Shown here: positions 8,148 through 32,591 of the stretch, piece after piece
How positions within the stretch are numbered: position 1 is the first letter of the stretch
Layout of the letters: the number at the start of each line of letters is the position of its first letter
Source of the DNA: Nanobdellota archaeon
GTDB taxonomy: Archaea; Nanobdellota; Nanobdellia; Woesearchaeales; JAGLGH01
Assembly: GCA_034723595.1 (NCBI GenBank)
Contig: JAYEPB010000100.1
Span: forward strand, 1 to 32,591
Direction of reading: 5' to 3'
DNA length: 32,591 nucleotides
Position numbers and translations under genes: made by a program
Notes under the pieces: generated by a model
The model's database searches: none
Told to the model about the DNA's origin: nothing
What the model saw: only the letters and a program-made list of their open reading frames with translations

Positions 8148-8151
8148 TTTA
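8103..8151. repeat. 49-bp direct repeat, copy 1 (contains the real start of the 7053..8147 gene)
   Basis: gatccagttgaactgtatctcaattgatcctcttttttttatcatttta is identical at 8103-8151 and 8263-8311. Confidence 0.9.
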
Positions 8152-8307: not shown

Positions 8308-8311
8308 TTTA
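8263..8311. repeat. 49-bp direct repeat, copy 2
   Basis: Identical to 8103-8151. Confidence 0.9.
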
Positions 8312-8328
8312 TTTCTTTCAGAAATTTT

Positions 8329-8859
8329 TTACCAGGCACTTATCTCTGCGTATTCTCCTGTGCCCTCAAGCCGCAATACTGTTTCTGGGATTGCCACATC
8401 TACACAGAAGAATCCATTCCTGACTTGAAGTAATCCTATATTATAGCCATCTGCAGAAACACCTTTCATGAGGAACATGTTTTCGCCGGTGCAGTCTTTC
8501 CATGCATCATATATTAATGGATATTCTGAGTGGATGTTTTCTATGCGATATAAATCGGAACTAGTGATTTGAGAAAAACTTATGCATTTGTTTTGGGTAT
8601 CAACAAAACATACTTTATCAAACCTTGCAGGAATTTTAAGCGGCAGCTTTTTAACAGAGCCATATTGCGATTCTATCTTTCCCACTTGTGCCTTTATCTC
8701 GTTTGTCAGCTGCGTTATTATGAGATCCTCTGACTGATCGCCAAACATCTTGACCGCCTTATACCCATAAAGCAGGACAGCAGAGAATATTATCAATGCC
8801 AGTATATAGATGAAAACTTGCCCTGTTATTTGCGCTTTTTTGCATTTAATTTTAATCAC
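8329..8859 (-). CDS. Pilin-like protein (class III signal peptide), ~176 aa
   Basis: With the GTG at 8859 the N-terminus is (M)IKIKCKKAQITGQVFIYILALIIFSAVLLYGY. GGAG lies 5 nt upstream, and the start overlaps the giant gene's stop as GTGATTAA (translational coupling). The track start at 8907 is also GTG and would give an atypically long 25-aa leader. Confidence 0.65.
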   Translation of the reverse strand: MIKIKCKKAQITGQVFIYILALIIFSAVLLYGYKAVKMFGDQSEDLIITQLTNEIKAQVGKIESQYGSVKKLPLKIPARFDKVCFVDTQNKCISFSQITSSDLYRIENIHSEYPLIYDAWKDCTGENMFLMKGVSADGYNIGLLQVRNGFFCVDVAIPETVLRLEGTGEYAEISAW

Positions 8860-15446: not shown

Positions 15447-16760
15447 TTAATTAGCAATATTAAATGTTATTGTCTGCCAATCTGTATATTCACCATCTGA
15501 TATCTTGATTGTAATTTCCTTTGTGCCCACCCACTGGTCTTCATCTATAATTAGATATGGCAGTTGCGGAACATATTCTATGCTTACATTATCCCCATCT
15601 GGTTCATAATATATCCTATGCTTGCCATAAGGCTCAAGCCAGTTTTTTATTTTATCGCTAAAATTATATATTACATTGCTTCCGGATTGCACAATAAGCA
15701 AGTCCTCATCATTTCCTATGATTGAATCTCCTACCTTTAAGTTAGGCAATTCCAATGAATCAATATAATGCAATGCTGGAGGTCTGTTTGCAATAAGCAG
15801 ATTTAATCTGAATGGGCTTCCGTCAATCAGATAAGAGCTGTCTTCAATCATAATGATATCATCAAATCCAGATGGTCCAATATCCCTCATTATGCCAGCA
15901 ATTCTTGCGCTGCCATATTGTTTTCCAAATGGTGAATTATCAATCATCAGGCATTCGGCATCAAGAATCATCCTGGCAAAAACATGGAGATTGTGCATCC
16001 GGAGAGGGATTCTCACTATGAAATCTTCAATTCGCGTCACATCATTTGTGGCTTTTTTTCTTATATCAAGTGGATAATTTATATCAACTACTGTTGATTT
16101 GTCATGGAAAGTTATATTTGCTGTTATATCGCCTTCACTAACTTCCAGATTTGCAAAATTCTCAAATCCTCTTGTGCATATTTTTATGTTATTTTCAATA
16201 TAATTTTTTAGCTGTTCTTTGATTGTGATAGGATTGGCAGGATCAGACAGACTCTCAAGTGAAGGGAATTTGACATAACCATAAAATCCCTGAAGTATGT
16301 GGGGATGGTTTATGCTCATGCTTGGGAAACTGTGAAAGGGATATTCTGGCATATATATTTTGTAGAAGCCAGTATCTTCTTTTAAAGATTTTTTAATTGT
16401 ATATGCTATATTTGCCTGCTCTGCCTCAATATATTGGTAATCTTCACCCTGTACCTCAAGAGAGAGGGGGATTAATCCGCCATCAACATCAAACAATGTG
16501 CCGCCACTTCGTCCAAACTTAAAAAATGCCTGATTTACCGTCAGGGCAACACAAGATTGAGCAAAATCCTGCAATTGCATGATATCTGCAGGAATCTGTC
16601 TGCTTTCTTCCACTTCTATCTCTGCCTCCTTTTCTCTTGTTTGACTTATCATTGTAAACATAATTAGGAATATGGCTATCAGCACCAGCCCTATTATGAT
16701 GAAAAATGTTATCTGTCCTTTCTGTTTCATTTTGTAATTCTTCCAAATTTTCTCGTTCAT
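15447..16760 (-). CDS. Pilin-like protein (class III signal peptide), 437 aa
   Basis: MNEKIWKNYKMKQKGQITFFIIIGLVLIAIFLIMFTMISQT... AGGA lies 6 nt upstream of ATG 16760, and a GTTTAAATAAA box at about 16788-16798 follows the upstream stop. An alternative start is ATG 16730 (MKQKGQ). Confidence 0.7.
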   Translation of the reverse strand: MNEKIWKNYKMKQKGQITFFIIIGLVLIAIFLIMFTMISQTREKEAEIEVEESRQIPADIMQLQDFAQSCVALTVNQAFFKFGRSGGTLFDVDGGLIPLSLEVQGEDYQYIEAEQANIAYTIKKSLKEDTGFYKIYMPEYPFHSFPSMSINHPHILQGFYGYVKFPSLESLSDPANPITIKEQLKNYIENNIKICTRGFENFANLEVSEGDITANITFHDKSTVVDINYPLDIRKKATNDVTRIEDFIVRIPLRMHNLHVFARMILDAECLMIDNSPFGKQYGSARIAGIMRDIGPSGFDDIIMIEDSSYLIDGSPFRLNLLIANRPPALHYIDSLELPNLKVGDSIIGNDEDLLIVQSGSNVIYNFSDKIKNWLEPYGKHRIYYEPDGDNVSIEYVPQLPYLIIDEDQWVGTKEITIKISDGEYTDWQTITFNIAN

Positions 16761-16802: not shown

Positions 16803-19800
16803 TTATTTGCAGCATAAAGCACAACTACTTAAATAATTTTCAGAATCATAATAATAAGATTGTTCACCCCAATCATCATATTCTGTATATTCTTTAAGAT
16901 AAGAACATTTAATCTGGGAGTCCCGATTACCAATTGTAACATCATCAGTTGCCCCTAGTATTTCAAGTGATTCATAATAATCTGTGATATCCCCGCTTTT
17001 TGAGAGGGTTACCTTAAACATTAGCTCAAAATATGTGTCAGCATCAAGATTAATCCTTTCTTCAAAAGGGTTATTAGTGGATGTTATATCCGGATTGCAA
17101 CCCTCTCCTATGCCAACATTAATTACCCTATCTTCATCAGCAGCACATTGAACATCACTTTCAGAGTCGCATAAAACATAACATTCGTCATATATGAATT
17201 CGCATTCCCCTTGACCATTGCATTCATAATATTTTGATGCGCACGCCCCGCAAGTTCCGCCACACAGATCATCTCCACATTGCTTTCCTAAGCAATCTGG
17301 TATGCATATGCAATCATTATCATAATCCCCACTGGAACATTTTTCATTTAATTCAGTTGAGTAGCCAACGCAGCCAACGCAGCAGCAGCCATTATCATCT
17401 GTACAGCTGCAATCAGGGTCATAATCACAATCAGCCTCATTGCAGATTTTATCGCATCCACAGGATATTGTTTGCGCATAACTGCATTCACCCAGACTGC
17501 ACGAACCTTGCTTATAGCAATTAAAATCTAAACAATAATCTGGGCAGGAAATTTCTATTGACTCACCAAATTCCAGGCACCCATCATCATTATAATCCAT
17601 GCATATCTGATAATGGGTATCATCTATGCATTCCTTTGCTCCATAATATGGACATGTATCTTCACAAATCTTGCAGGCATCATTAAAGCAGCCAGATTCG
17701 CATTGTACTTCACTATAGGCACAATCACCACCACTGCAATATCCTGAATGATAGCTGATATTGTTTTCACAATAATCATTGCACACTAATGCGAAATAAG
17801 GACTCCATTCCATGCAAGAGTCATAGTCATATAATCCGCATGTCTTATACTCCATGCCTGTACCGCATTGCTTTGATCCAAATGCAGTGCATTCATTACT
17901 GCATGTCTCTATGGCGCTTGCATTAATCCTTAATTTGGATGTCAGGTCCTGCCAAATCTCTTCTCCAATCTCATATCTTGAGAATATATAGTAGTTGTTC
18001 CCAGTTTTATTGCAGGCAATAGTTTCACCAGGATTAGTCTGGTATATTTCATTATATTTCTCTACATATTGGCAAATATCAATAGTCTCAAATCCATCAT
18101 AAGTCAATGCTATGAAATTCGTGGGACATGTGTTTGCAGAGCCTGAGTATATGGTATAATCAATAGCTTTACCATATGCAGCAATAAGATGTTTGCCTCC
18201 AGCATGAGTAATGTATATCTTATCAAAGTTCTGCATGTTGTTTATAAAATCAACAGGTATTGCACTCACTTCCCCATATAGCATAGTCTTTGGACCCCAT
18301 CCGATAATCCAGTCTAGCATGGCATCCATCACACCCTTGAGAAGAGGGCTAAAGAAATTAAGCCAATTGTTATTTGGCAGAGAGACAGTAATAAGGGAAT
18401 CTTTATTGAATATGATTGATTCAATATCATGATTATACCACCCTTTTCTATTATCACAGCTGACAAACTTGCCAGATGGCGCATCCTCTTCAGATACTTT
18501 TGCATCCTTGCACAAATTTGCGATTGGGTCACTCATCAGATTTTCTGAATCTATTGGCACATTGTAGCTTGTTCCTATAATAACATTGTCTTCATAACTC
18601 AGTATGCAGACATTATTGATGCAGGGAACTTGATACCCATCCCTGTTACAATTTTCAGGAAGTATATTCTTATATTCAGGAAGAGTCTTGTCATAGTCAT
18701 CGCAGTATAATGTGTACTTTTTTATGCTTTTTTCAGTAGCCATATTAATCATTGCCTGTGCTATCTGTTTTGTTCTGGATGTCCATTCTCCATCCTCACA
18801 ATATCTATCAAGGAAAGAATCTCCGTCTGCAACACAGATTGGTTTATCTGTATCAGTATAGAACTTATCAGGATTATCATTGCTGCCTGAAGATCCAGCC
18901 ATAGTTACCAGGCATTGATCTGCTCTTTGGCAGAATCCAACTTCTTCTTTATCCCAAGCTTCTTTTAGCTCTACTTCCACCCATTCTCCGTCATAGCATC
19001 TGTATCCATAGAAAGTGTCCAGGGTGCTGTCACTGATCTGGTTAGCTACGCAGTTAGTTCCATCCCAGCATTCGTCTACAGGGCAGCATGAACTGCTGCC
19101 AGAAATAGGAGATATACTAGCTGAAAGGTTTGTTTCTGTTATTTCTTTCCATTCACCCCAGTAACTGCAATAGGCATTAGATCCCAATGCTCCAGTTACA
19201 ATAGTGCATCGCTCTTTATCTTTAATAAGCTGTGTATCATTATGGAGGTCTTTTAATTCTAACAAGTATCCTTTGCCAGAATACCTCGCATTTTCTGCTA
19301 TTGCGCATCCAAGGAATTCCCCATTATAATTTATTACTTCTGCTATTTGCGCTCCATCTTCTGTAACATATGTGCCTTTCCTTATCGTTTGGCTCTTCCA
19401 GCATCCTCCATTTCCATCTGGGTCATTATAATATTCTTCTCCATCATCTGCCTCACCGCAGCAAAGGCTGCCAGTCCATATAAGAGGTTCGCCTGCAGGT
19501 GATTTTGCTTCATTGCATGATTCTCCTGTTGGGTCGCGATCATCATCAATATTGTCAAGGTCTGTTTGCAGCTCAGAATAGGTTGTGCAATAGTATGTTA
19601 CACCCCCTGTTTGTATGCTCTCTCCAGTCTCTAATCTTGTCCCTTTTCCAGGACTATAGATTGCGCTTATAGTTGAGTGTGGGTTGTCTTCTCCAGTACA
19701 TTCAGCAATCCTTCCTCTTATGCCATCATCATAACAAAGGAAATGATGCTCTGCGATATTTAATCTTGTTTCTGTAAAGTCAATTAAATTGTCTTGAGGA

Positions 19801-21134
19801 ATTGTTATAGGCTCAGATACAGCTTCATCATGGATTAAGCTATTAGGGGATTTGCAGACATGCCAGTTATTGCCGTCAGACACTGCGCTCTTTCCAAAGC
19901 ATTCAATATCAATTATTCCTCCCTGCGCTCCTTGTGCCATTATCCATTGCCAATAAGTCTCTCCGCTGCCAAAAGGTCCTGCATCCTGGGACTCATATGT
20001 GTCAAAACACACATCTCCTGAATCTACCATGCTGCAGTCATATCCATAATCAGATGTCATTACAAATACCTGAACTTGATCTGTAATATTTTCACCAATT
20101 TCAATAACAGTTGTTTGTGTCTCTCCAATATAAGCGCTGCTTGCTGGAAACATATACCTTTCAATGCTATCTTTATTTAGTTTCCCATTTGATTTATTAC
20201 GAAGATGAAATGTCAATGTAGTGTTTGAACTTATCTTTTCCACGAATTTAAGATTATCAGTTCTATATACTATTGTATGATTTATGTATGTTACTTCTAA
20301 AGACATATCTTCAAATCCCAAACCCTCATCACTTTCTACCTCTGTCATGCCTTTATATATCTCAAGGGTATATGTCTCTTCTGGCTCTGCTGTAAATATT
20401 CCTGTATTGACATAATGACCTGTGCATTGGTCATTCGTATCAATATGGAACATGTAAAGATCACCGTCTTCTGCAACAGTAGCCCCTGCGCTATTTGTTA
20501 TCTTAGCATACAATTCTGTATTATAAAGATAACACCCTTTAAGAATAAATCTCCATGATACTTGTTGGGTTTCCGGTACTTCAAAATCGACTGATTCATG
20601 CTGGATTGCTGTGCCTTCATAATGAAAGTTTACTTTTTTTGATGTAGGGGTCTTATGAATCTCAGGAATGTCTTCTTCATCTATTGTTACTATCACTGAC
20701 CATTCATCTACAAGGATTCCTGAATCATCTCCGCAGCATTCCCCCTCCCCATTGTCAGCATCAGCATTCCAGTCAGAGGCACCACAATCAACATCAGTGC
20801 AAAACTCTTCAATGCTATCATAATCCGAATAGTAAGCATATGTACTTGCATAATCACCATGGGTCCAGAATGTTGTAAGATATATCTTTTCATCATACTG
20901 GCATGGTCTGTCTTCCATTGTGCATTCTGTTGGACAATCTGGAGTATCCTTTCCAGTCTCATCTATGGGGCAGTCTTTCACTAGTGCTCCGCAGCTTGTA
21001 TTTCCATATGCGCAGTCATTTGGATGGATAGAGATTGGCGCATAAACAGAACTGCTTATTAAAATAAGGATTAATAATAAGAACAGAAACAATGATTGCT
21101 TCTTATATGTTATAATGCATACTTTATTTTTCAT
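16803..21134 (-). CDS. Giant (~1443 aa) secreted cysteine-rich protein
   Basis: The ATG at 21134 gives MKNKVCIITYKKQSLFLFLLLILILISSSVYA/PIS, a Sec-type signal peptide, with GAGGA upstream. The track start at 21185 is GTG. CCG(D/E) acidic motifs are present (GECCGDDSG, LCCGEADDGEEYYNDPDGNGGCW). A 247-aa segment near the C-terminus (about 17163-17903) holds ~44 Cys and includes CIPDCLGKQCGDDLCGGTCGAC. No C-terminal TM helix is present. Confidence 0.8.
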   Translation of the reverse strand: MKNKVCIITYKKQSLFLFLLLILILISSSVYAPISIHPNDCAYGNTSCGALVKDCPIDETGKDTPDCPTECTMEDRPCQYDEKIYLTTFWTHGDYASTYAYYSDYDSIEEFCTDVDCGASDWNADADNGEGECCGDDSGILVDEWSVIVTIDEEDIPEIHKTPTSKKVNFHYEGTAIQHESVDFEVPETQQVSWRFILKGCYLYNTELYAKITNSAGATVAEDGDLYMFHIDTNDQCTGHYVNTGIFTAEPEETYTLEIYKGMTEVESDEGLGFEDMSLEVTYINHTIVYRTDNLKFVEKISSNTTLTFHLRNKSNGKLNKDSIERYMFPASSAYIGETQTTVIEIGENITDQVQVFVMTSDYGYDCSMVDSGDVCFDTYESQDAGPFGSGETYWQWIMAQGAQGGIIDIECFGKSAVSDGNNWHVCKSPNSLIHDEAVSEPITIPQDNLIDFTETRLNIAEHHFLCYDDGIRGRIAECTGEDNPHSTISAIYSPGKGTRLETGESIQTGGVTYYCTTYSELQTDLDNIDDDRDPTGESCNEAKSPAGEPLIWTGSLCCGEADDGEEYYNDPDGNGGCWKSQTIRKGTYVTEDGAQIAEVINYNGEFLGCAIAENARYSGKGYLLELKDLHNDTQLIKDKERCTIVTGALGSNAYCSYWGEWKEITETNLSASISPISGSSSCCPVDECWDGTNCVANQISDSTLDTFYGYRCYDGEWVEVELKEAWDKEEVGFCQRADQCLVTMAGSSGSNDNPDKFYTDTDKPICVADGDSFLDRYCEDGEWTSRTKQIAQAMINMATEKSIKKYTLYCDDYDKTLPEYKNILPENCNRDGYQVPCINNVCILSYEDNVIIGTSYNVPIDSENLMSDPIANLCKDAKVSEEDAPSGKFVSCDNRKGWYNHDIESIIFNKDSLITVSLPNNNWLNFFSPLLKGVMDAMLDWIIGWGPKTMLYGEVSAIPVDFINNMQNFDKIYITHAGGKHLIAAYGKAIDYTIYSGSANTCPTNFIALTYDGFETIDICQYVEKYNEIYQTNPGETIACNKTGNNYYIFSRYEIGEEIWQDLTSKLRINASAIETCSNECTAFGSKQCGTGMEYKTCGLYDYDSCMEWSPYFALVCNDYCENNISYHSGYCSGGDCAYSEVQCESGCFNDACKICEDTCPYYGAKECIDDTHYQICMDYNDDGCLEFGESIEISCPDYCLDFNCYKQGSCSLGECSYAQTISCGCDKICNEADCDYDPDCSCTDDNGCCCVGCVGYSTELNEKCSSGDYDNDCICIPDCLGKQCGDDLCGGTCGACASKYYECNGQGECEFIYDECYVLCDSESDVQCAADEDRVINVGIGEGCNPDITSTNNPFEERINLDADTYFELMFKVTLSKSGDITDYYESLEILGATDDVTIGNRDSQIKCSYLKEYTEYDDWGEQSYYYDSENYLSSCALCCK

Positions 21135-21230
21135 AAGATAATTCCTCTTTTTAGTATCCTTGTGTGAAATCCTCTGATATCTCACAAGATATTATAATGT
21201 ATTGCTATACTTGAATATTCATCAAACTGG

Positions 21231-21353: not shown

Positions 21354-22250
21354 ATGAAAAGAGTAGATATCAAGACAGGATTCTTATGCAATAACAATTG
21401 TAGGTTCTGCATCCAGGCTGACAATAAACTTAAAGGCAATAGGAGTTTTGAAGATATAAAAGAGGATTTGATTGGCTCAAAAGAAAGATGCGAAGGAGTA
21501 GTCTTTACAGGCGGAGAAGTCACAATAAGGAAAGACTTCTTTGATCTTGTCAAATTAGCCAAAGAATTGGGCTATAAGACAATACAGATACAGACAAACG
21601 GAAGGATGTTTGCATCATTGGATTTCTGTAAAAAAACAATTGCTGCTGGCGCAACAGAGTTCAGCCCTGCCTTGCATGGCTATTGCAAAGAACAGCACGA
21701 TTATCTGACTCGTTCCTCTGGCAGTTTCAATCAGACTGTCAAGGGCATCAAAAACCTTAAATCCTTGGACGCTTATGTCCTGACTAACACAGTTGTAGTC
21801 AAGCCAAATTACACAAATCTGCCTCAGATTGCCAGATTGCTAGTTAAACTTAATGCAGACCAGTTTCAGTTCGCATTTGTCCATCCTATGGGGAATGCAT
21901 GGAAAAATTTTAATAACATTGTTCCCCGTATTTCCTTGGCAGCACCCTATATGCATAAAGGCCTGCAGATAGGTGTTGATGCAGGAAAAAGAGTTATGGC
22001 AGAAGCAATGCCCTACTGCCTTATGCAGGGTTATGAGGATTATGTTGCTGAAATAGTGATTCCTGAGACAGAGATAAGGGGGAAGAAATATCAGAATACT
22101 GACCATTTTGATAAACAGAGGAAAGAACAAGGCAAAGCAAAATTCCCTCAATGCAAAAAATGCAAATATGAGGATATATGCGAAGGGCCATGGAGAGAGT
22201 ATCCTGAGAAGCAGGGACACACAGAATTTCAGCCTATTGATGATATTTAA
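21354..22250 (+). CDS. Radical SAM enzyme (COG0535-like) with a C-terminal CxxCx5C motif
   Basis: CNNNCRFC is a CxxxCxxC motif at residues 12-19. GGEVTIRKDF is the SAM-binding GGE motif and IQTNG follows. The C-terminus reads FPQCKKCKYEDICEGPWREY. It is paralogous to the C-terminal half of the next gene. Confidence 0.85.
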   Translation: MKRVDIKTGFLCNNNCRFCIQADNKLKGNRSFEDIKEDLIGSKERCEGVVFTGGEVTIRKDFFDLVKLAKELGYKTIQIQTNGRMFASLDFCKKTIAAGATEFSPALHGYCKEQHDYLTRSSGSFNQTVKGIKNLKSLDAYVLTNTVVVKPNYTNLPQIARLLVKLNADQFQFAFVHPMGNAWKNFNNIVPRISLAAPYMHKGLQIGVDAGKRVMAEAMPYCLMQGYEDYVAEIVIPETEIRGKKYQNTDHFDKQRKEQGKAKFPQCKKCKYEDICEGPWREYPEKQGHTEFQPIDDI

Positions 22251-22382
22251 TAAGAGCCAATGCATCTTATTTTTTGAGGATTATTGCTGTTTAGAATGGA
22301 ATACTTATGGATCCAGGGAAAAATGCGATAAGATTAAGGATACATTTTTATTAAAGCCATATATTTCATATAAGGAAGGGGG

Positions 22383-22402
22383 TAAAAAGTATACTTTTTA
22401 TA
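22383..22402 (+). promoter_or_regulatory. 18-bp perfect palindrome TAAAAAGTATACTTTTTA overlapping a TTTTTATA box ~25 nt upstream of ATG 22421
   Basis: I read the palindrome directly (22383-22400). The TATA-like tttttata lies at 22395-22402, which gives leaderless geometry for the GT-radical SAM gene. Confidence 0.4.
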
Positions 22403-22420
22403 GAATTTCAATGTACAAAA

Positions 22421-24496
22421 ATGAAAATAATGCACATATCACCAATAAGGTGGCATCCTTGTTTTACTGAATTAATAAAAGAGCAGAGTAATGGACATAC
22501 CATACTTTTTGTTAAACTTGATTTGATTGAAAAAGATAAGTCTTATGAGGTTGTCAATGATGCAAGAGATGACTGCATACGAATAAAGAACATTAAAAAA
22601 TGCTGTGATCAGAATTATGATTCTAAGCTCAATATCATATTCAATAACTTGTTGAAGGAACACAAGCCAGATATAATTCATCTGCATGTTTTTTCCGGAA
22701 TAAGCCTGCTCCCGATATTGAATGCAGCCTCAAGCTTGGATATAAAAAAGATATTAACACTTCATGACCATTCTTTATTATGCATTAAAGGTCTATGTTA
22801 TAATCAGGATAACAAATGTGAATTAACTACATTAGCACAGTGTGATTGCCAGGAATGTCTGGAGCACTCATCTAAGAGCAATATCTCATTAAATTCCTAT
22901 AATCAGCGTAGGAAGATGTGGATAGAATCTATCATCAACCAATGTGACAAGATAATCTGTCCATCCAATTATCAGAAAAAGCAGATGACCACTTTATTTG
23001 GCAAAGATGCTAAAATCATATATTTATATTATGGTATTAAGTTGCCTAAATTCAAACAAGAGCAGAAAAAAATTAGCATGCCAGTTTTTGGATATTTAGG
23101 CACAACATCATGGATAAAGGGAATTAGATTAATAGAAGAAGCTATTAAAAAATTAAAAGGTTATGATTTTCGCATATTAATGGGATTCAGCAAATTGAGC
23201 AATCAAGATAACGCATTTTTTAAGAAAATTGACAAAAACAATGAAATTATAATTAAACAGGATATATCCAGAAATGCTTTATATCATCAGTTCTTCAGCC
23301 AAATAGATTACCTGATAATACCTTCAATCTGGAATGAGACTGGACCAATGACTTTATTGGAGTCATTTTATTATAAGGTACCTGTAATTCTATCTAATAA
23401 TGAAAGCATGGTGGAAAAGATAAGAGGGAATAAAAGTTCTATGGTCTTTAATAGCATTGATGAATTAGTTCTCATCATGAAACAGATTATCAATGGAGAT
23501 ATAAAAAAAGAAGAAAAAGATTTGTTTGCTGCCAAGAATATTGCCCAGTATTCTGAAGAGATAATTGAAATATATAAAGATGTGATGGCAGCTAAACAAA
23601 AAGGTTTATTTCTAAAACTTGGATATGAATGCAACAATAATTGCATTTTCTGTGTTACAGGCGATAATCACCCTAGAAAATTCATAGATCTTGAAATAAT
23701 TAAAGAAACTTTAAGAAAAAACAGGGGTAAATTCAATTCATTGGTCTTAACTGGAGGAGAACCAACAATCAGGAAGGATTTTTTTAAGATTTTAGACCTT
23801 GCTTATAGGCTGGGATATAAGATATTATTACAGACAAATGCAAGAATTTTCTCATATGAAACATTTTGTGATAACCTTAAAGGCTATAATTTAAAATTCA
23901 GCATTAATGTGAATTCTCCTGATTTCAGGATTCATGATGAAACTACTGGAGTAAAAGGCAGTTTTGCCCAGACTATCAAAGGCATTCAAAATCTACAAAA
24001 ACATGATTTTGAGATATTGGGCAAAATAATGCTGACACGCATCAATTATAGGCATGTTCTGGAAACTGTGAAATTTATAGCGCAGCTTGGGATTAGGGAT
24101 ATATGGCTTGTTTTTTTGACACCTTACGGCTCAGCTAAGATTAATTTTAATGATGTTATACCTGGATATTCGCAAGTCATGCCTTTTGTAAATCAAGCGC
24201 TTTTATGGGCAAAAGAGAACAGCAATATAAAGATGGGCATTGAAGGATTCCCTTATTGCTGCATAAATCAGGAATTCAGGCAATTAGTGACAGAAGAGAA
24301 CTTCAATAAAGATTCCCTGCAGGGCATATATGCTGGAGATGACAATTATGAGTATAATTGCAAATATGAAAGAGTTTTCACCCAAAAACAGAAGTTTGAC
24401 AACTGCAATGAATGCAGATATAATAATAAATGCGAAGGAATATATAAAGAGTATGTTAAGCATAATGGTAAAGGGGAATTTAAACCTATAAAATGA
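22421..24496 (+). CDS. Fusion protein: GT4-type (GT-B) glycosyltransferase (N-terminal ~390 aa) + radical SAM domain (C-terminal ~300 aa)
   Basis: The GT part contains MKIMHISP..., HKPDIIHLH, LTLHDHSLLC with a Cys-rich insert (CDCQEC), and PSIWNETGPMTLLESFYYKVPVI (the E-x7-E region). The radical SAM part contains GYECNNNCIFC, LTGGEPTIRKDFF, LLQTNA and a C-terminal FDNCNECRYNNKCEGIYKEY. Confidence 0.8.
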   Translation: MKIMHISPIRWHPCFTELIKEQSNGHTILFVKLDLIEKDKSYEVVNDARDDCIRIKNIKKCCDQNYDSKLNIIFNNLLKEHKPDIIHLHVFSGISLLPILNAASSLDIKKILTLHDHSLLCIKGLCYNQDNKCELTTLAQCDCQECLEHSSKSNISLNSYNQRRKMWIESIINQCDKIICPSNYQKKQMTTLFGKDAKIIYLYYGIKLPKFKQEQKKISMPVFGYLGTTSWIKGIRLIEEAIKKLKGYDFRILMGFSKLSNQDNAFFKKIDKNNEIIIKQDISRNALYHQFFSQIDYLIIPSIWNETGPMTLLESFYYKVPVILSNNESMVEKIRGNKSSMVFNSIDELVLIMKQIINGDIKKEEKDLFAAKNIAQYSEEIIEIYKDVMAAKQKGLFLKLGYECNNNCIFCVTGDNHPRKFIDLEIIKETLRKNRGKFNSLVLTGGEPTIRKDFFKILDLAYRLGYKILLQTNARIFSYETFCDNLKGYNLKFSINVNSPDFRIHDETTGVKGSFAQTIKGIQNLQKHDFEILGKIMLTRINYRHVLETVKFIAQLGIRDIWLVFLTPYGSAKINFNDVIPGYSQVMPFVNQALLWAKENSNIKMGIEGFPYCCINQEFRQLVTEENFNKDSLQGIYAGDDNYEYNCKYERVFTQKQKFDNCNECRYNNKCEGIYKEYVKHNGKGEFKPIK

Positions 24497-25383
24497 AAAT
24501 TTTAGTGCCTCTATCTAATCTTGAAGAAGTTAAGCCTTTATGTACTGCTGGCGCTGATCAGTTTTATTGCGGATTAGTCCATAAGAATGAATCTCTTAAT
24601 GACAGGCCAAATATAGGGAATTTTAATTTTACTGATATTGATGAACTCTCAAAAGCAGTAGATATTGTCCATGGCTTGGGAAAAGATATGTTTTTAGTGA
24701 TTAATAACATCACTCCTGATTTAGAGTCTGCTCTTAGTCAGGCACGAATTGCTGAGAAGCTGGGGATAAAAGGGGTTATTGTATCTAATCCTTTAGTTCT
24801 GAAGAGGATAAGGGAAGAGAAATTAAAATTAGATGTATGCGCAAGTTGTTTAACTGGAGCGTTAAACAGCCAGGCTATAAATTTCTTTCAGAAGTTAGGC
24901 GCAAAGCTTATTCATTTACCCAGGCATGTAGGAATAAAAGATTTAGAGATGATTTCTAATAATCTCGAGGGGATTGAACTATCTGTTTTTGGCATGAATG
25001 GCATGTGCATAAATATTGAAGCATACTGCTCATTGCATTACCTGAAAAATGAGTTCTTTATACCTTGCAATAATTTCAAAACAATTGAATTGGCTGGTGA
25101 AGGGTCATTGTCAAAGACTGAGATGAATAAAAAGATTAATTCTCCTAAGATTAGCTGTGGAATCTGCGCATTTAAAAGATTTAAAAAAATAGGGATAAGT
25201 TCAATTAAAATTGAGGGCAGAGGCATATCTACTAATAAAAAGATAATAAATGTGTCTATTGTAAAGGAAGCTTTAGACTTAGCCAATGAAAACATTAATG
25301 ATGCAGACTTTCACTTGCTCTGCAAAAGATTATTTAAGAAACATTTTAATGAAGATTGTAAAGTGGAATATTGTTACTTTTAA
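24493..25383 (+). CDS. Peptidase U32-family protein, UbiU-like Cys pattern
   Basis: MKILVPLSNLEEVKPLCTAGADQFYCGL...NFNFTDIDELSKAVDIVHGLGKDMFLVINN...GVIVSNP...ELSVFGMNGMCINIEAYCSLH...IKIEGRG follows the U32 family layout. Cys lie at about 172, 179, 192 and 222/225. The ATGA start overlaps the upstream stop. Confidence 0.7.
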   Translation: MKILVPLSNLEEVKPLCTAGADQFYCGLVHKNESLNDRPNIGNFNFTDIDELSKAVDIVHGLGKDMFLVINNITPDLESALSQARIAEKLGIKGVIVSNPLVLKRIREEKLKLDVCASCLTGALNSQAINFFQKLGAKLIHLPRHVGIKDLEMISNNLEGIELSVFGMNGMCINIEAYCSLHYLKNEFFIPCNNFKTIELAGEGSLSKTEMNKKINSPKISCGICAFKRFKKIGISSIKIEGRGISTNKKIINVSIVKEALDLANENINDADFHLLCKRLFKKHFNEDCKVEYCYF

Positions 25384-25385
25384 AG

Positions 25386-26117
25386 ATGGAAAAAGCAATT
25401 CATTTTAGGGCAATCCATAATTTGGATAGAATTAAAATCAAGGATATAGGCAGATTTTACTTTGGCGAAGAGTTTTGTGATCGGCTATTGCCTAGCAATC
25501 AGGAGATGAAAGAAGTAGTCAATAAAGCAAGAGAGTCAAATAAGGACATTTCCTTGTTGATACCCCCCTTGTCTGAGACAGGCCTGAAAAAGGCCATATC
25601 ATTGATTAATTTATTAGATTCTGGCAGTGAGGTTATTGTAAATGATTATGGGGCATTAAATCTTGTTGCTAATGAATTCGAGAATCCTATCATTATAGGG
25701 AGAGTAATGGGGAGAAACATACTTCAGGCTTTGAATATATTTAATAATGACAAAGATTTAATTAAGGAAAATATCCTTCTATTTGGTTCGAGAATTAAAG
25801 GCATCGACGTGGATTACTTTAATGCCAATAAAATTAATCCTATCTTGGCTAAGATTTTAGACTTTTCATTTTATAGGGGCCCCTTTTTTTGGACAGTGAC
25901 AAGGAGATGCGCATTTAATAGCAATTCCCAAAGTCTGCATAAATTTGCAGCCTGCAAAAAAGAATGTTTAAAAAACAAGGCAATAATTAAGAATACGCTA
26001 GTTAATAAAAGGTTTTTATTAGAAGGTAATAAGATAATTAATCTTGAAATGACTGCCAGAAAAAAGATAAACTATGGGTTATTTAAACGAGTAGTCTATA
26101 AGCTAAAAGAGAGTTAA
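25386..26117 (+). CDS. U32-related protein, UbiV-like Cys pattern
   Basis: MEKAIHF...RFYFGEEFCDRLLPS...ISLLIPPLSE...VIVNDYGALNLV. Cys lie at about 31, 175, 190 and 194 (C..., then C-x14-C-x3-C). The track start at 25371 is non-ATG; the ATG at 25386 lies 2 nt after the upstream stop. Confidence 0.6.
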   Translation: MEKAIHFRAIHNLDRIKIKDIGRFYFGEEFCDRLLPSNQEMKEVVNKARESNKDISLLIPPLSETGLKKAISLINLLDSGSEVIVNDYGALNLVANEFENPIIIGRVMGRNILQALNIFNNDKDLIKENILLFGSRIKGIDVDYFNANKINPILAKILDFSFYRGPFFWTVTRRCAFNSNSQSLHKFAACKKECLKNKAIIKNTLVNKRFLLEGNKIINLEMTARKKINYGLFKRVVYKLKES

Positions 26118-26118
26118 G

Positions 26119-27027
26119 ATGAATTTACCTAACGAAATAATCATAGAATTGACAAGAAAATGCAATCTGGATTGTGATTTTTGTTTTAACAAGCAAGGAA
26201 CTTATAATTCATGCGGGATTTCGCAAAAAGAGATTTTTAAAGTATTGCAGGAAGTTTCAGATTCTGGAATCAAGGCAGTGAGATTTACAGGTGGAGAGCC
26301 GTTCTTAAGAAAAGACTTATGCGAAATACTAAGAAAAGCCAAATCATTGGGCATGTATGTGATTCTCAACACTAATTCGTTTCTAATAGATGAAGGAAAT
26401 AAAGATTGTTTTAATTATGTTGATTTGGTTCTTTTTTCCTTGCATAATACTGCGCGATTTGAAAAAGTAAAAGAAAAGATGGATATGCTGAAAGATTATA
26501 ATTTGAAAATTATGCTTGGCACTATCCTTATACAACTAAATATAGATCCTCTTGAGGATTATTATGATTTCATCTCTAAATTAGATAGCAAAAACTTTGT
26601 AGAATGGTTCTTATTAAGACCAATACCAAATAAGTCCAATAAGAAGCCAATAACTAAAAAAGACATCAGAATCATCTATGAAAAAGTTGTGCAATATAAT
26701 AAGGAATATAATATGGATATTAAAATTGCAAATGCCTTGCCTTTCTGTGCAATAGATGAAGATTTACAATCTATCTGCAAAGGAGGGCATTTTGATTCTG
26801 GTTATACCAGGCTGGTTATTGATGCTGCTGGGAATTATAAAGCAGATTATTTTTCAAACATTTTAGGAAATATCAGTTCAAGCAATATTCTTGATGTATG
26901 GAATTCCAGAGAGATTAAGGATATTCGTGAATTTAAGAAGATTGATGAGAAATGCAAGACCTGCTGTCATCTCACAAAATGCAGAGGAGGCTTGATTGGA
27001 AAAGAATATTTGCGCAAGTTTGCCTGA
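26119..27027 (+). CDS. Radical SAM enzyme with a C-terminal SPASM/twitch-type auxiliary cluster domain
   Basis: CNLDCDFC is the CxxxCxxC motif and FTGGEPFLRKDL follows. The C-terminal region reads PFCAIDE...CKGG...VIDAAGNYKADYFSNILGNISSSNILDVWNS...CKTCCHLTKCRGG. The start lies 1 nt after the upstream stop. Confidence 0.8.
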   Translation: MNLPNEIIIELTRKCNLDCDFCFNKQGTYNSCGISQKEIFKVLQEVSDSGIKAVRFTGGEPFLRKDLCEILRKAKSLGMYVILNTNSFLIDEGNKDCFNYVDLVLFSLHNTARFEKVKEKMDMLKDYNLKIMLGTILIQLNIDPLEDYYDFISKLDSKNFVEWFLLRPIPNKSNKKPITKKDIRIIYEKVVQYNKEYNMDIKIANALPFCAIDEDLQSICKGGHFDSGYTRLVIDAAGNYKADYFSNILGNISSSNILDVWNSREIKDIREFKKIDEKCKTCCHLTKCRGGLIGKEYLRKFA

Positions 27028-27040: not shown

Positions 27041-28282
27041 TCAAATATTATTGAATTTTGCATATACTTTAAAATTTAATCCATTGGCAATTTTATATGC
27101 TGTGCTGCCAATATCATAATGGTTATTGATTGAAAGAATTTGTATTGCTTTTCTTATGTCTTCTCTATATTTCTTATTTAAGAATAAATCCGTGTTTTTG
27201 ATGAATTCTTTCGTCTTATCATCTAATTCTGCTTTTTCTCGTGTTTTTTGATTATTTAATATTGCCAGCAATTTTTTGTCATGGTCTTTGCAAATAATGT
27301 TTTTATTTAATTTGAGCTTATGATAATTCTCAACTTTTTGCACTGCCTCAACAATATCAATCTTCCCAAGCGGCTGGTTATTTATCAAGTCTGTGGATTT
27401 GCTGACATAGTTTGTTCTTACTAAATTCTCTTTTGGAACAACATTATATCCGCCGCCATGTTCTGATGCAATAATGGGGATGCCCATATGATTTGCTTCT
27501 ACAAGGACTCTTGGACATGATTCTAGATTTGCTGTTGAAGGGAATAACATAACATCTATATTTTTAAGGAATTCCCATATCCTTTGGTGAAGAATTGGTT
27601 TGCCTTCATTTATATGGATATAATTTCTTTGATCAATTTTATGCTTATTCAACAATGAGATTATTCTATCGCGAGAATATTCTGCTTGCGGCTTGCCGCA
27701 TGCGAGAAATTGTATATTTTTCTCTTTTAATGATTTAGATGATTCTATAAATATTTGCAAAGCCTGATCAAAGTTTTTTTCTTTCGATAGATGCCCTAAC
27801 CAGCCCAATACAATCTTGTTCTCTTGTTTATGTTTTTCGATTTTTGGGTGATTTTGAAAAGAATGCATGACTGGAAAACATACAGAGGTATTTTTTTCAT
27901 TTAAATGAGAGAAAAGTTTTATATAAAACTGTCTGGTAAATTCTGAAGGGATTATTAATTTGTCATTTTCATTCGAATATTTTGAACAAAGCTTTTCCTG
28001 CATCAAATATCCCCCCCAAAGAGTTGTGTGGATATCTCTTACTATGGTAAAATTTTTGTTGTATTTTTCTCTCAAATAATGGAAAATCCAGTCATAAGGT
28101 CCAGAATTGGTCAATAGTACATCTTCATCATTAAAACTTTTAATTTTTCTTAATATATCAAGAAAATGCATGCCCTTGGCATTAGGTTGTTCTGATAAAA
28201 AGCATGAATTATAGTAATAACATAAATTAGCCCCAAATTCGTTATTATTTTTATAATTGCAATAGATTATCATTCTTAGCAT
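27041..28282 (-). CDS. GT-B fold glycosyltransferase (GT4/GT1-like)
   Basis: GWLGHLSKEKNFDQALQIF... and MLFPSTANLESCPRVLVEANHMGIPIIASEHGG match the E-x7-E-type C-terminal domain motif. The N-terminal domain is divergent. Confidence 0.65.
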   Translation of the reverse strand: MLRMIIYCNYKNNNEFGANLCYYYNSCFLSEQPNAKGMHFLDILRKIKSFNDEDVLLTNSGPYDWIFHYLREKYNKNFTIVRDIHTTLWGGYLMQEKLCSKYSNENDKLIIPSEFTRQFYIKLFSHLNEKNTSVCFPVMHSFQNHPKIEKHKQENKIVLGWLGHLSKEKNFDQALQIFIESSKSLKEKNIQFLACGKPQAEYSRDRIISLLNKHKIDQRNYIHINEGKPILHQRIWEFLKNIDVMLFPSTANLESCPRVLVEANHMGIPIIASEHGGGYNVVPKENLVRTNYVSKSTDLINNQPLGKIDIVEAVQKVENYHKLKLNKNIICKDHDKKLLAILNNQKTREKAELDDKTKEFIKNTDLFLNKKYREDIRKAIQILSINNHYDIGSTAYKIANGLNFKVYAKFNNI

Positions 28283-29628: not shown

Positions 29629-29669
29629 GGACTTTTGACAAATTATATAATCAGAAAAAGATGCAGAAG

Positions 29670-32591
29670 ATGGGAAAAAGAATTATGTTTTATTGCCATT
29701 ATAGTGTAGGTCTTGGCCATTTTGTCAGGACATTTGCATTAGCCAAAGGCATAAAAAGAGTAAATCCAAATTCTGAGATTTTAATTGTTTCAGGCGGCGC
29801 ACCAGTTCCCATTAAATTGCCAGATGGAATACAAGGGATTAAAATTCTTAATTTGCCGCCACTTAGAGAATCACAAAACAACAGGGAATTAGAGCCATTG
29901 TCTGATGAATCAGCTGATGAAGTAAAAAAATCAAGGATAATTCAAATAATTAAGGCATATAGATTATTTAAACCGGATTTTTTATTTGTCGACCATTTCC
30001 CATTTGGAAGAATTGAACTAAAATATGAAATAACTGCTCTGCTTGATATTGCGATGAATTCTAATAAAAAACCAAAAATAATTTCCAGCATAAGAGACAT
30101 GGCTTTTGTGGAAAAAGATCATGAAGAAGAAACTGGACAGATGATAGAATACTTTTTGAACAAATACTTTGATTATTTATTAGTTCATTCTGACTATAGA
30201 GTAACTTGCATTGAAGATGAATTTGAGATATTAAAACAAGTTAAGATTCCTATAATCTATACTGGTTATGTCTGTTCAATGTCTGAAGAAGAGATTAAAG
30301 AAAATGTTAAAGAAAAGGTTAATTATACTGATGCAGATTATCCTTACGCAAAAAATGAAAAATTAATATTGGTTAGCGCAGGTGGAGGAAGGAGTTGCTT
30401 TGAGCTTATCAAAAAAACAATTGAGGCAAAAGAAAAATTAGACAAAAATAAAGTGAAATCAAGATTCTTGATACTGGCTGGCCCTTTCTTAAGCGAAGAG
30501 GAATTTTTATCATTAAAAGAACTTGCAAAAAAACATAGAGGTATAAGTCTAAAGCGATTTATACCTGATTTCATTGATGTTTTAAAACAAGCCGATGTTT
30601 CAATAAGCAATGTTGGATATAATACTACTGTTGAACTCCTATTGACTAAGACTAAATCCTTATTAATCCCCCATATCAAGAATTCTGTGATAAACAAGGA
30701 ACAGCTTGAACGAGCTAAAAAAATAAAAAACATAATCTCAGCAGAGATTCTTGATCCAAGAGAACTGAATCCAATGAAGATTGCGGATTGTTTGAACAAA
30801 TTAATGAGTTCTAAGCAAAATCAGGGTGATAGCAAACAATTTGAAGTTGATCTGAATGGCGCTGAATTTGCAGGAGAATTCATAAGCAATCTTAATAAGC
30901 CTTGCAGGGTATTTTTCAGAGATGATGATGTTCATGAAGTGACAGATAAGTTTATTGATTTAAATAATCTATTTTCAGATAAAAACATTCCAATACATTA
31001 TTCAGTCATACCTTGCACAATGTCTAAAAATTTGATTGAATACTTAAATAATATTAAGAAAAAACAACATAATATTGAGATAGGTCAGCATGGCTGGAGC
31101 CATAAAAAACATGGAGATTCTGTAAGCTATGAATTTGGCGATAAAAGGAGCTATTCTGAGCAATATGAAGACATTTCTAAAGGCAGGAATAAAATAGAGT
31201 CTAATTTTGAAATAAATCCAAATCTTGTTTTTACTCCGCCTCACAATAGATTAAATTCAGATACAATCAAGGTGCTTGAAAAACTTGATTTCAGGATAAT
31301 CTCTTCATCATGCTATTCTGATGAATACAATAAAATAAGACCTCCTCAAAAAATAAGGGATATTCCTATTTGTCTGGATTTATTTATCAAAATAGATGAC
31401 AAGTGGATATTAAAGGATAAAAGAGAACTAATAAAAGAGTTTTTTATTAAAAAGCAGAATGGAATAGTTGGCATAATGATTCATCATAAGTTTTTCAGTG
31501 ATAAAAAAGAATTTGAATTATTGAATGAGTTTATTGATCTTATGATTAGAGAAAAAGTACAATTTAAATCATTTGCGCAAATAAATAACTATTTAAAACA
31601 ATCAAAAAAAACAATTGCCTATCTCAGATCTAACTATCTTCCTGCTTCTGAAAACTTTATATATCAGGAAATTAAGAATATAAATCAATCTGATTCATGT
31701 TATGCAGCTGTAATTTCAGTTGTTAGGGAAAATGAAAATATATTCTCTGGAGTAGAGGTCATTGAGCAGCCACGATTCAAATCTTTACACACTGCCAATT
31801 ACCCATTCATAAAAAATTCACAGCTTAAGCTTTACAGCCAATTCATGAACTTTTGCGCAGATGAAATAATGTCAAGGGATGTTTCTTTGCTTCATGCCCA
31901 GTTTGGTGATGATGGGCTGTTCTTTTTGCCATTAAAAAGAAAAACTGGGCTGCCTTTAGTTGTATCTTTTAGGGGTTTTGATTTATACAGGCTGCCAAAT
32001 CAGTTCCCAAGGGTATATAATCCTTTATTCAAAGAAGCTGATTTGTTCTTGGTTAGGTCTAATTCCATGAAAAAAGATTTGATTAATTTGGGATGCCATG
32101 CTGAAAAAGTAAATGTGCATCATTCATCAATTGATTTAGATGAGATTGATGCAATCCTAAATAAAATACAAAATAAAGAAATAAGAGTCAATACAGAAAC
32201 AATAAAAGAGGAAAAAAGAGTTAATGAGAAAATTAAACTTATTTTCGCAGGAAGGTTTGTTGAAAAGAAGGGAATCTTTGATATTATTAAAGCGTTTTCA
32301 GGATTAAAGCAAGAGGGCAAGGATATTGAACTGAAGTTGATTGGCGACGGTCCCCTAAAAAAACAGGCAGAAAAAATGGTTTATGATTTGGAAATCAAAG
32401 ATATAACTTTTATGACCTTCTTAAGTCATGAAGATCTGATAAAAGAGATTAAAAAATCAGATATATTTGTTCTTCCAGGCAAAACTGCAAAAGACTGCAA
32501 TAAAGAAGGCATTCCTGTTATATTAATGGAAGCAATGGCTTGCGGCTTGCCTGTTGTTTCAACATTCCATTCAGGAATCCCTGAGTTAGTT
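29670..32591 (+). CDS. Partial CDS (continues past the right edge): tri-domain fusion of a MurG/COG4671-like GT-B glycosyltransferase, a polysaccharide deacetylase (CE4/DUF2334-like) and a GT4 glycosyltransferase
   Basis: Absent from the ORF track (no stop in the window). Hand translation in the frame of ATG 29670 is open to 32591 (~974 codons). It begins MGKRIMFYCHYSVGLGHFVRTFALAKG, and the first domain continues with ...LILVSAGGGRS...ILAGPFL...ISNVGYNTTVELL. From about 30900 it reads CRVFFRDDDV...IGQHGWSHKKHGD...FTPPHNRL. From about 31610 it reads ...VVSFRGFDLY...LIFAGRFVEKKG...FVLPGKTAKDCNKEGIPVILMEAMACGLPVVSTFHSGIPELV. In-frame ATGs also exist at 29598, 29661 and 29685. Confidence 0.75.
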   Translation, partial: MGKRIMFYCHYSVGLGHFVRTFALAKGIKRVNPNSEILIVSGGAPVPIKLPDGIQGIKILNLPPLRESQNNRELEPLSDESADEVKKSRIIQIIKAYRLFKPDFLFVDHFPFGRIELKYEITALLDIAMNSNKKPKIISSIRDMAFVEKDHEEETGQMIEYFLNKYFDYLLVHSDYRVTCIEDEFEILKQVKIPIIYTGYVCSMSEEEIKENVKEKVNYTDADYPYAKNEKLILVSAGGGRSCFELIKKTIEAKEKLDKNKVKSRFLILAGPFLSEEEFLSLKELAKKHRGISLKRFIPDFIDVLKQADVSISNVGYNTTVELLLTKTKSLLIPHIKNSVINKEQLERAKKIKNIISAEILDPRELNPMKIADCLNKLMSSKQNQGDSKQFEVDLNGAEFAGEFISNLNKPCRVFFRDDDVHEVTDKFIDLNNLFSDKNIPIHYSVIPCTMSKNLIEYLNNIKKKQHNIEIGQHGWSHKKHGDSVSYEFGDKRSYSEQYEDISKGRNKIESNFEINPNLVFTPPHNRLNSDTIKVLEKLDFRIISSSCYSDEYNKIRPPQKIRDIPICLDLFIKIDDKWILKDKRELIKEFFIKKQNGIVGIMIHHKFFSDKKEFELLNEFIDLMIREKVQFKSFAQINNYLKQSKKTIAYLRSNYLPASENFIYQEIKNINQSDSCYAAVISVVRENENIFSGVEVIEQPRFKSLHTANYPFIKNSQLKLYSQFMNFCADEIMSRDVSLLHAQFGDDGLFFLPLKRKTGLPLVVSFRGFDLYRLPNQFPRVYNPLFKEADLFLVRSNSMKKDLINLGCHAEKVNVHHSSIDLDEIDAILNKIQNKEIRVNTETIKEEKRVNEKIKLIFAGRFVEKKGIFDIIKAFSGLKQEGKDIELKLIGDGPLKKQAEKMVYDLEIKDITFMTFLSHEDLIKEIKKSDIFVLPGKTAKDCNKEGIPVILMEAMACGLPVVSTFHSGIPELV

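Follow-up and report, generated by a model that had tools for sequence, protein, structure and literature searches.

A glycosyltransferase fused to an HxsC-like radical SAM domain in DPANN archaea and Omnitrophota

The His-Xaa-Ser (HXS) system, whose parts are HxsA, HxsB, HxsC and HxsD (TIGR03975-03979), was described in 2026 as an anti-phage system that blocks the entry of phage DNA, and 99.7% of canonical HXS systems occur in Pseudomonadota (PMC13128918). Both HxsB and HxsC are needed for the maturation of HxsA, with a change of +8 Da on an SHRSS motif, and HxsC, itself implicated in that maturation, binds HxsD (PMC13128918). Here we describe a gene on contig JAYEPB010000100.1 of a Nanobdellota archaeon (assembly GCA_034723595.1), of which the window analysed is the whole stretch of 32,591 nt; its 691-aa product joins a complete GT4-type glycosyltransferase (GT) to a complete radical S-adenosylmethionine (rSAM) domain resembling HxsC, and lies next to a free-standing, 298-aa paralog of that domain. 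Homology and gene context point, with confidence about evenly poised, to a bifunctional maturase that would glycosylate and radically modify a ribosomal peptide or surface protein.

Anatomy of the fusion and of its free-standing paralog

Both open reading frames (ORFs) are present exactly as the first-pass annotation of this DNA had placed them (Table 1), and all the motifs that it quoted were found: CNNNCIFC in the fusion and CNNNCRFC in the paralog, GGEPTIRKDFF and GGEVTIRKDFF, QTNA and QTNG, and the C-terminal CX2CX5CEG. Its reading of a whole GT4 enzyme joined to a whole rSAM domain is borne out by the Pfam domains of the fusion, Glyco_transf_4 (residues 75-206, 46.7 bits), Glycos_transf_1 (211-362, 42.6 bits) and Radical_SAM (401-553, 76.4 bits), which all exceed their gathering scores (29.5 bits for PF04055), as does the match of the paralog. 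The N-terminal half has the two Rossmann domains, the EX7E motif and the GT-B fold of retaining GT4 glycosyltransferases, and its top Foldseek matches are enzymes of that family (sucrose-phosphate synthase (SPS) Tll1590, MshA, BshA, PglA and PimA), with a probability of 1.00 and target-normalised TM-scores mostly of 0.6-0.7. In an alignment of 29 fusion-family members, E306 and E314 of EX7E (nt 23336-23362) and K233 of the donor domain are invariant; with the donor domain conserved as well, the GT half is probably active. Four invariant cysteines (C121, C133, C141 and C143; nt 22781-22849) lie in an insertion within the GT N-domain and probably make up a metal site. The rSAM half, a member of superfamily PF04055 by CX3CX2C and GGE as is the paralog, has invariant C404, C408 and C411 (CX3CX2C, nt 23630-23653), GGEP (445-448) and the auxiliary cysteines C613 (nt 24257-24259) and C662, C665 and C671 (nt 24404-24433).

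The first-pass annotation had named a frameshift or assembly error joining two genes as what could overturn its reading, and this is not what we found. The same 691-aa protein, identical and with the same neighbours, occurs in an independent Logan assembly of SRR26901924, and the alignment runs unbroken through the junction and linker in 28 full-length homologs (36-92% identity) drawn from ENA, Logan, NCBI and JGI, with further fusion loci in two more collections. An AlphaFold2 (AF2) model built from the family alignment is a confident single body (predicted local distance difference test score (pLDDT) 88.5, predicted TM-score (pTM) 0.88), in which the rSAM barrel starts straight after the last GT-B helix. 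An artefact is therefore ruled out, with next to no probability left to it.

For both proteins the top two NCBIfam families are HxsC4 (164 bits for the paralog, spanning its full length, and 116 for the fusion) and HxsC (98 and 101 bits, respectively), and the next-best families reach only 68-74 bits (68 for the fusion). The named matches in a plasmid protein search are annotated HxsC proteins, and both rSAM domains share with Aeromonas pAsa4 HxsC the motifs CX3CX2C, GGEP, PxC and C-terminal CX2CX5CxG. On these sequence grounds we class both domains as HxsC-like. Their C-terminal region is of the non-SPASM, HxsC type, its four cysteines and Gly aligning with those of the Aeromonas protein; neither the fusion nor the paralog matches the SPASM family PF13186, and both have only four auxiliary cysteines as against the seven-cysteine motif of SPASM/twitch domains. 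The N-terminal extension of canonical HxsC (~100 residues) is lacking from the fusion in the alignment with Aeromonas HxsC.

Among solved structures, the relatives by sequence and fold are generic rSAM enzymes (BlsE, SkfB, GDGT-MAS, viperin-like enzymes, DesII and SuiB). The best sequence match of the fusion is BlsE (1.4e-12), confined to the rSAM core (residues 394-563), and in the fold search GDGT-MAS, SkfB and viperin score as well as BlsE and DesII; searches with the modelled folds of the whole fusion and of the paralog return generic GT4 and rSAM matches that do not tell substrates apart. Among the family matches listed, BlsE (TIGR04466, cut-off 400 bits) is the only sugar-modifying rSAM model, with no DesII or BtrN model there; the paralog reaches 58.3 bits and the N-domain-rSAM relative in locus L020 42.7 bits, and BlsE is absent from the 25 best NCBIfam families of the fusion.

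That the neighbouring gene is a paralog of the fused domain, as first annotated, is upheld by an alignment of the two rSAM regions over 296 residues (34% identity, E = 2e-51). The 298-aa protein has CX3CX2C at C12, C16 and C19, GGE at 53-55 and auxiliary cysteines C222, C267, C270 and C276, and its AF2 model (pLDDT 96.4) finds GDGT-MAS as its top fold match. Its family has 2756 matches, the best 120 at 63-95% identity, and the sources that give names list Woesearchaeota and Nanoarchaeota only. On Woesearchaeota contigs the orthologs adjoin Cdc6 and PolD and come first in arrays of paralogous genes for HxsC-like rSAM proteins; several of these loci also have HxsB, HxsD and HxS-repeat genes close by. 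In three such arrays (L088, 8001-16894; L089, 7731-11697; L040, 9986-19947) the paralogous HxsC-like rSAM domains number up to six or more, and multi-rSAM proteins of 616 and 1161 aa are among them. Membership of so large and conserved a DPANN family means that the 298-aa gene is no private partner of the fusion, and it rules out a recent, fusion-specific duplication; the gene encodes a second HxsC-like enzyme and is a conserved component of the lineage. A second HxsC-like gene near the fusion is seen again in several lineages.

Distribution and gene neighbourhoods

The fusion is rare: an exhaustive profile search of 1.84 billion 50%-identity clusters yielded about a dozen full-length representatives, and a database search found ~35 clusters carrying both GT and rSAM domains. 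According to genome records its carriers are mainly Omnitrophota, among them Ca. Velamenicoccus archaeovorus LiM with a complete genome, and a few are metagenome-assembled genomes (MAGs) under other labels; it also occurs in DPANN archaea, and the nearest relative of the window protein (91% identity) belongs to a Nanoarchaeota MAG. The viral contigs searched held no relative. The nearest fusion-family proteins are unnamed or only generically named, and the literature on GT-rSAM fusions, on rSAM clusters of DPANN and Omnitrophota and on clusters of U32 and rSAM genes yielded no description of the family. The first-pass annotation had known of no characterised enzyme with this architecture, and neither such an enzyme nor the common, already characterised fusion family that it had named as a possible refutation came to light in these searches. 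In three or four Omnitrophota lineages, a gene of ~320 aa (L014, 9027-9998; orthologs in L003, L009-L012, L015 and L016) lies directly upstream of the fusion; it has a weak DUF483 match (21 bits, below the cut-off), and the same domain is fused to this type of rSAM in protein P0050. In the Omnitrophota loci L002 (8526-9896), L095 (8400-9770), L093 (9009-9956) and L003 (12727-22031) the fusion has genes of type IV pili or of type II secretion next to it (T2SSE ATPase, MshEN domains, N_methyl pilin, PilM/PilO and secretin).

Five fusion or split-fusion loci adjoin a His-Xaa-Ser repeat peptide, and four of them (L006, L102, L093 and L020) also carry HxsB and HxsD-like genes; the relatives that give the deciding context stand at 47-53% identity. 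In L093 an HxsD-like gene, HxsB (380.5 bits) and an 88-aa HxsA3-like peptide come after the fusion. Locus L006 has an HxsD-like gene, HxsB (376.3 bits) and an HxsA-like peptide directly upstream of its fusion, an arrangement shared, by similarity, with L102. In L007 a long HSSHGS-repeat gene begins 7 nt past the fusion stop. Locus L020 holds the parts as separate genes within an HXS operon: an N-domain-rSAM protein, a complete GT4, HxsD, HxsB (370.2 bits) and an HxsA-like gene. The curated HxsB cut-off of 370 bits is thus reached in all three loci scanned. The peptides share a VKDE.G.ISKE.ILKIG leader, a hydrophobic segment and a C-terminal HxSHxSY tail. All HxS-repeat peptides beside GT fusions end in Ser-Tyr, several beside rSAM-only genes end in GGWC or GGW, and in every one a K-[IVL]-G motif precedes a hydrophobic stretch, which resembles a processing site; in L006 a type IV prepilin peptidase (A24) is encoded beside the fusion. 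Among rSAM-only loci with at least 15 kb of sequence, 24 of 50 carry an HxsB, HxsD or HxsA-like/HxS-repeat gene, and so the rSAM clade, judged by its neighbours, is HXS-associated well beyond the fusions.

In the window, the fusion is the first gene of a tight, translationally coupled set of four, followed by a U32-family gene, a partner gene of ~245 aa and a SPASM rSAM gene (Table 1). The U32 protein scores 79 bits against the UbiU cut-off of 440. Its partner has no Pfam match and always comes after the U32 gene; it is related to U32 proteins only by profile comparison (hhalign to the U32 set, 77% probability, E = 2e-5, 132 columns), which makes a diverged U32 paralog probable. The TTG listed as the start of this partner (25371) overlaps the U32 gene. 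Its likely true start is the ATG at 25386, 3 nt past the U32 stop, and the resulting product of 243 aa equals the ortholog in L094 in length. The SPASM protein reaches no curated cut-off, including those of NirJ2, HxsB and viperin. The four-gene cassette recurs in the same order in L094 (92%), L092 (62%) and the Omnitrophota locus L006 (52%, 51%, 42% and 49% for the four proteins).

Sugar enzymes make up the genes downstream of the cassette. The L094 ortholog of the multidomain protein at the end of the window is 1039 aa long and is followed by a fusion of DegT, rSAM and SPASM domains, and other fusion loci add sugar-enzyme-rSAM fusions, PMT-family transferases, DegT, YdjC and a carbamoyltransferase. 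The fusions of this kind in the same clusters are the DegT aminotransferase-rSAM-SPASM protein of L094 (11361-13134) just named, a 1520-aa protein of L092 (2473-7035) with matches to several glycosyltransferase families, rSAM and SPASM, and a GT28C-rSAM-SPASM protein of L086 (1-1421); the joining of a sugar enzyme to an rSAM domain thus arose repeatedly.

Table 1. Positions of the fusion, its domains and neighbouring genes in the window, and of HxS-repeat peptide genes in related loci.
Feature	Position	Strand	Basis or remark
GT4-HxsC-like rSAM fusion, 691 aa	22421..24496 (incl. stop codon)	+	Pfam, NCBIfam, homologs, second assembly, alignment, AF2 model, Foldseek
GT-B N-terminal (acceptor-side) Rossmann domain, residues 1-205	22421..23035	+	Pfam Glyco_transf_4, invariant columns
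GT-B C-terminal (nucleotide-sugar donor) domain, residues 206-367	23036..23521	+	Pfam Glycos_transf_1, K233/E306/E314, Foldseek
HxsC-like rSAM domain, residues 396-691	23606..24493	+	Pfam PF04055, NCBIfam, invariant cysteines, HxsC alignment
Free-standing HxsC-like rSAM protein, 298 aa	21354..22250	+	Pfam PF04055 70.9 bits, NCBIfam, HxsC motifs, AF2
U32-family protein (UbiU/TrhP-like), 296 aa	24493..25383	+	Peptidase_U32 99.3 bits; start overlaps fusion stop by 4 nt
Partner protein, 243-248 aa, probable diverged U32 paralog (UbiV-like role)	25371..26117	+	hhalign to U32 set
rSAM/SPASM protein, 302 aa, last gene of the four-gene operon	26119..27027	+	Pfam Radical_SAM, Fer4_12, SPASM
Glycosyltransferase, 413 aa (Glycos_transf_1)	27041..28282	-	syntenic in L094
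GT4 glycosyltransferase, 388 aa	28337..29503	+	syntenic in L094
Multidomain protein, at least 977 aa (Glyco_tran_28_C, DUF2334/polysaccharide deacetylase, GT4)	29661..32591	+	runs off the window end
Cysteine-rich proteins: giants of 2184 and 1460 aa, and one of 437 aa	8852-15406, 15447-16760, 16803-21185	-	almost no Pfam signal
HxS-repeat peptide genes beside GT fusions (related loci)	L093 14017-14283; L006 9614-9910; L020 15167-15412; L102 4146-4415; L007 2800-3522

Upstream of the rSAM and GT cluster, and divergent from it, lie the genes of the cysteine-rich proteins, two of them giant surface proteins, whose sole Pfam match is a sub-threshold bacterial TSP3 repeat (23.6 bits, cut-off 25); the largest combines an acidic repeat region rich in D with a hydrophobic anchor at its C terminus. 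These proteins are candidate targets of glycosylation. On the same strand, four consecutive ORFs (6035-8907; 161, 176, 364 and 192 aa) have no Pfam match, and their N-termini, e.g. MRDKKGQMEIFGLVIIV and MIKKRGSIEIQFNWIFIL, resemble the class III (type IV pilin-like) signal peptides of archaea. Two other genes have no evident tie to the cluster, one (3010-3927, minus strand) for a 305-aa protein that begins with a MazE/AbrB-type domain and one (4082-4537, plus strand) for an AsnC/Lrp-family regulator. Scans of the window for tRNAs and Rfam families were empty, and a scan with the 2023 release of PADLOC, which has no HXS model, gave only a generic viperin-like (pVip) similarity.

A proposed maturase and its alternatives

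The architecture, motifs, conservation and neighbourhoods described above leave us to infer the substrate, the two catalytic activities and the order of the steps. We propose that a catalytically intact, retaining-type GT4 enzyme, rigidly fused to an HxsC-type rSAM domain with a second, four-cysteine Fe-S site, would act as a bifunctional maturase: its acceptor domain would bind a Ser/Thr/His-rich peptide or surface protein, the GT would O-glycosylate it from a nucleotide sugar, and the rSAM domain would afterwards modify that substrate by HxsC-like radical chemistry. In the window's operon the presumed U32 pair may act as an O2-independent hydroxylase alongside the SPASM rSAM protein and, taken with the glycosyltransferases downstream, these genes lead us to propose a heavily tailored cell-surface glycopeptide or glycoprotein as the end product. 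A peptide or surface protein is favoured over a free sugar because the rSAM half falls in the HxsC clade, which matures His-Xaa-Ser repeat peptides, and in several relatives the fusion occupies the position of HxsC beside other HXS parts. In HXS systems the HxsC enzymes work with HxsB and HxsD in maturing a His/Ser-rich protein that is ribosomally made. On the same side we count a Clostridium perfringens plasmid locus (L096; NZ_CP075938.1, 15995-28882) that looks like an uncharacterised glycosylated ribosomally synthesised and post-translationally modified peptide (glyco-RiPP) cluster: it encodes an NHLP-type precursor, two DUF6365 proteins, a sugar-phosphate nucleotidyltransferase, an HxsC-like rSAM protein 30% identical to the 298-aa paralog, a second rSAM protein, MtnK and MetK.

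Domain-deletion variants bear on the coupling of the two halves. In the L020 gene and in four proteins (P0033, P0036, P0037 and P0038), GT residues 1-205 are retained and the donor domain (~206-385) is missing, the sequence picking up again a little ahead of the rSAM domain. In GT-B enzymes it is mainly the N-domain that binds the acceptor, and in these variants an acceptor-binding module would therefore stay coupled to radical chemistry, which fits both activities acting on one substrate.

Several observations weigh against the maturase. HxsA, HxsB and HxsD were not found in the window by tblastn with L093 and L089 proteins, by a peptide hidden Markov model or by a search for H.S repeats, so that no HxsB, HxsD or His-Xaa-Ser repeat protein accompanies the HxsC-type genes there as in an HXS system; nor were they found in L094 (the 92% relative) or L092 (62%). 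HXS parts lie nearby in only 5 of ~14 fusion lineages, and the cluster of the window's own lineage is dominated by sugar enzymes, including the DegT-rSAM-SPASM fusion of L094, which fits radical sugar chemistry. The rSAM domains fall short of the curated cut-offs of HxsC (TIGR03977, 267.9 bits) and HxsC4 (NF038332, 500 bits), and their identity to canonical Aeromonas pAsa4 HxsC is just 23%. Direct action of HxsC on HxsA itself rests on genetics and docking, with the chemistry of HxsC still undefined (PMC13128918).

The missing HXS partners and the sugar-enzyme neighbours lend support to an alternative that we regard as a serious rival but on balance doubtful, in which the acceptor of the sugar moved by the GT4 would be no peptide (instead a glycan, polyprenyl-linked sugar, cyclitol or small molecule) and the fused rSAM domain would then alter the transferred sugar (by epimerisation, dehydrogenation, decarboxylation, deamination or C-C bond formation), giving an unusual cell-surface glycan under anoxic conditions. 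The first-pass annotation had likewise taken the fusion to mean that a sugar is transferred and radically modified, in either order, on one scaffold. Such sugar-directed chemistry gains plausibility from a cluster rich in sugar enzymes and lacking HxsA, HxsB and HxsD: the window neighbours are glycosyltransferases, including the GT28C/deacetylase/GT4 protein, L094 continues with DegT-rSAM-SPASM, L092 and L086 have other GT-rSAM-SPASM fusions, and Omnitrophota loci have DegT aminotransferases, YdjC, a carbamoyltransferase, B12-rSAMs and PMT_2. Its choice of the sugar as radical target fares less well, since both rSAM domains are HxsC-like, their clade is HXS-associated and five fusion loci adjoin HxS-repeat peptides. 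BlsE, a sugar-nucleoside decarboxylase, is the best sequence match among solved structures and is, with DesII, among the top folds, but it lies far under its family cut-off, and GDGT-MAS, SkfB and viperin match the fold equally; PMT-family neighbours would suit protein O-glycosylation too. The sugar and peptide models may converge on a glycopeptide with tailored sugars.

Extending the maturase reading, we offer the tentative idea, unlikely to hold in full, that DPANN archaea, Omnitrophota and some bacteria of the Candidate Phyla Radiation (CPR) have an expanded, glycosylating HXS system, in which the GT4-HxsC fusion, U32 hydroxylases and more rSAM enzymes would yield a modified His/Ser-rich surface peptide or decorate pilin-like proteins or giant adhesins, the product serving ultra-small episymbionts as a barrier to virus entry or a factor in host attachment. 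Such a surface peptide would be membrane-anchored, glycosylated and radically modified. In the most radical form of this idea the rSAM domain would cross-link the newly attached sugar to the peptide, to our knowledge a type of bond not yet known in RiPPs.

Two further models rank as less likely than those of peptide or sugar modification. The GT might place a hexose on a membrane lipid, possibly an archaeal one derived from the host, for the rSAM domain to rearrange as has been proposed for calditol synthase (Cds) or for HpnI/HpnK/HpnJ; ring contraction by an rSAM enzyme after a GT step has a precedent (review PMC13459092), YdjC and B12-rSAM genes in L004 echo HpnK and HpnJ, GDGT-MAS is the top fold match of the 298-aa paralog and the carriers are ultra-small, likely host-dependent anaerobes. 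We consider this quite improbable: no specific homology to Cds, HpnJ or Tes was found (Tes, 52 bits against a cut-off of 450), the window has no lipid-synthesis genes, and the association with HXS peptides would be left unexplained. A GT4 half that transfers nothing and serves merely as a substrate-docking module in place of the ~100-residue N-terminal domain of canonical HxsC would suit the variants that keep just the GT N-domain and the rSAM, as well as the lack here of HxsC's own N-terminal extension, but is equally improbable, since 29 members, down to 36% identity, keep EX7E, K233 and the entire donor domain either unchanged or well conserved, which implies selection for catalysis, and the N-domain-only variant of L020 is accompanied by a separate, complete GT4.

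Significance and comparison with described systems

The HXS system and GT4 enzymes are known; what appears to be undescribed is their fusion, its U32/SPASM cassette and its spread in DPANN archaea and Omnitrophota. The finding extends HXS-like systems from Pseudomonadota to DPANN archaea, Omnitrophota, CPR bacteria and Myxococcota, groups in which they are elaborated with U32 proteins and several independent sugar-enzyme-rSAM fusions, a pointer to glycopeptide or surface-glycan chemistry under anaerobic conditions, as yet unexplored, among organisms attached to other cells. For the chemistry of HxsC the 2026 study found no more than the +8 Da change on an SHRSS motif; small cognate peptides (75-95 residues) beside the relatives' fusions, split and domain-deleted variants and operons of a size fit for co-expression make the fusion family a tractable system for the role of this rSAM clade and for any coupling to glycosylation.

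Each described system that we compared shares part of this design. In mycofactocin biosynthesis the rSAM/SPASM maturase MftC, acting at a C-terminal Tyr, and the glycosyltransferase MftF work on one ribosomal-peptide scaffold. The likeness, including the terminal Tyr of the fusion-associated HxS peptides, is one of analogy only: MftC and MftF are separate proteins, MftF is not a GT4 enzyme, MftC has a SPASM domain, and homology does not go beyond the superfamily (36 bits against a cut-off of 265 for the mycofactocin rSAM model). Cds and the HpnI/HpnK/HpnJ route to the hopanoid cyclitol ether share the logic of glycosyl transfer followed by radical rearrangement of the attached sugar, with lipid substrates, separate proteins and no specific sequence relationship found. 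The sugar-modifying enzymes BlsE, DesII and BtrN are echoed by the structure matches to BlsE and DesII and, in the logic of DesI/DesII and BtrS/BtrN, by the DegT-rSAM fusion in the same cluster; that likeness is confined to the common rSAM core, and none of the three is known as a fusion with a glycosyltransferase. The U32 gene and the probable U32 paralog after the fusion recall, in their side-by-side arrangement, the UbiU-UbiV pair among the U32 O2-independent hydroxylases (UbiU/UbiV, TrhP, RlhA), from which they differ in a UbiU score far below its cut-off and in a partner recognisable only by profile comparison.

The closest comparison is with the HXS system itself. The fusion has a full GT4 where canonical HxsC has its N-terminal domain, its associated peptides are short and HxsA3-like with a hydrophobic segment in contrast to the peptidoglycan-binding HxsA, its hosts are Omnitrophota and DPANN archaea instead of Pseudomonadota, and U32 and SPASM partners are added; identity to HxsC is low (~23%), scores are far below the curated cut-offs, and the window is without HxsA, HxsB and HxsD. 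Yet the rSAM domains of the fusion and of the 298-aa protein share the layout of HxsC, and relatives have genuine HxsB, HxsD-like and HxS-peptide genes alongside the fusion.

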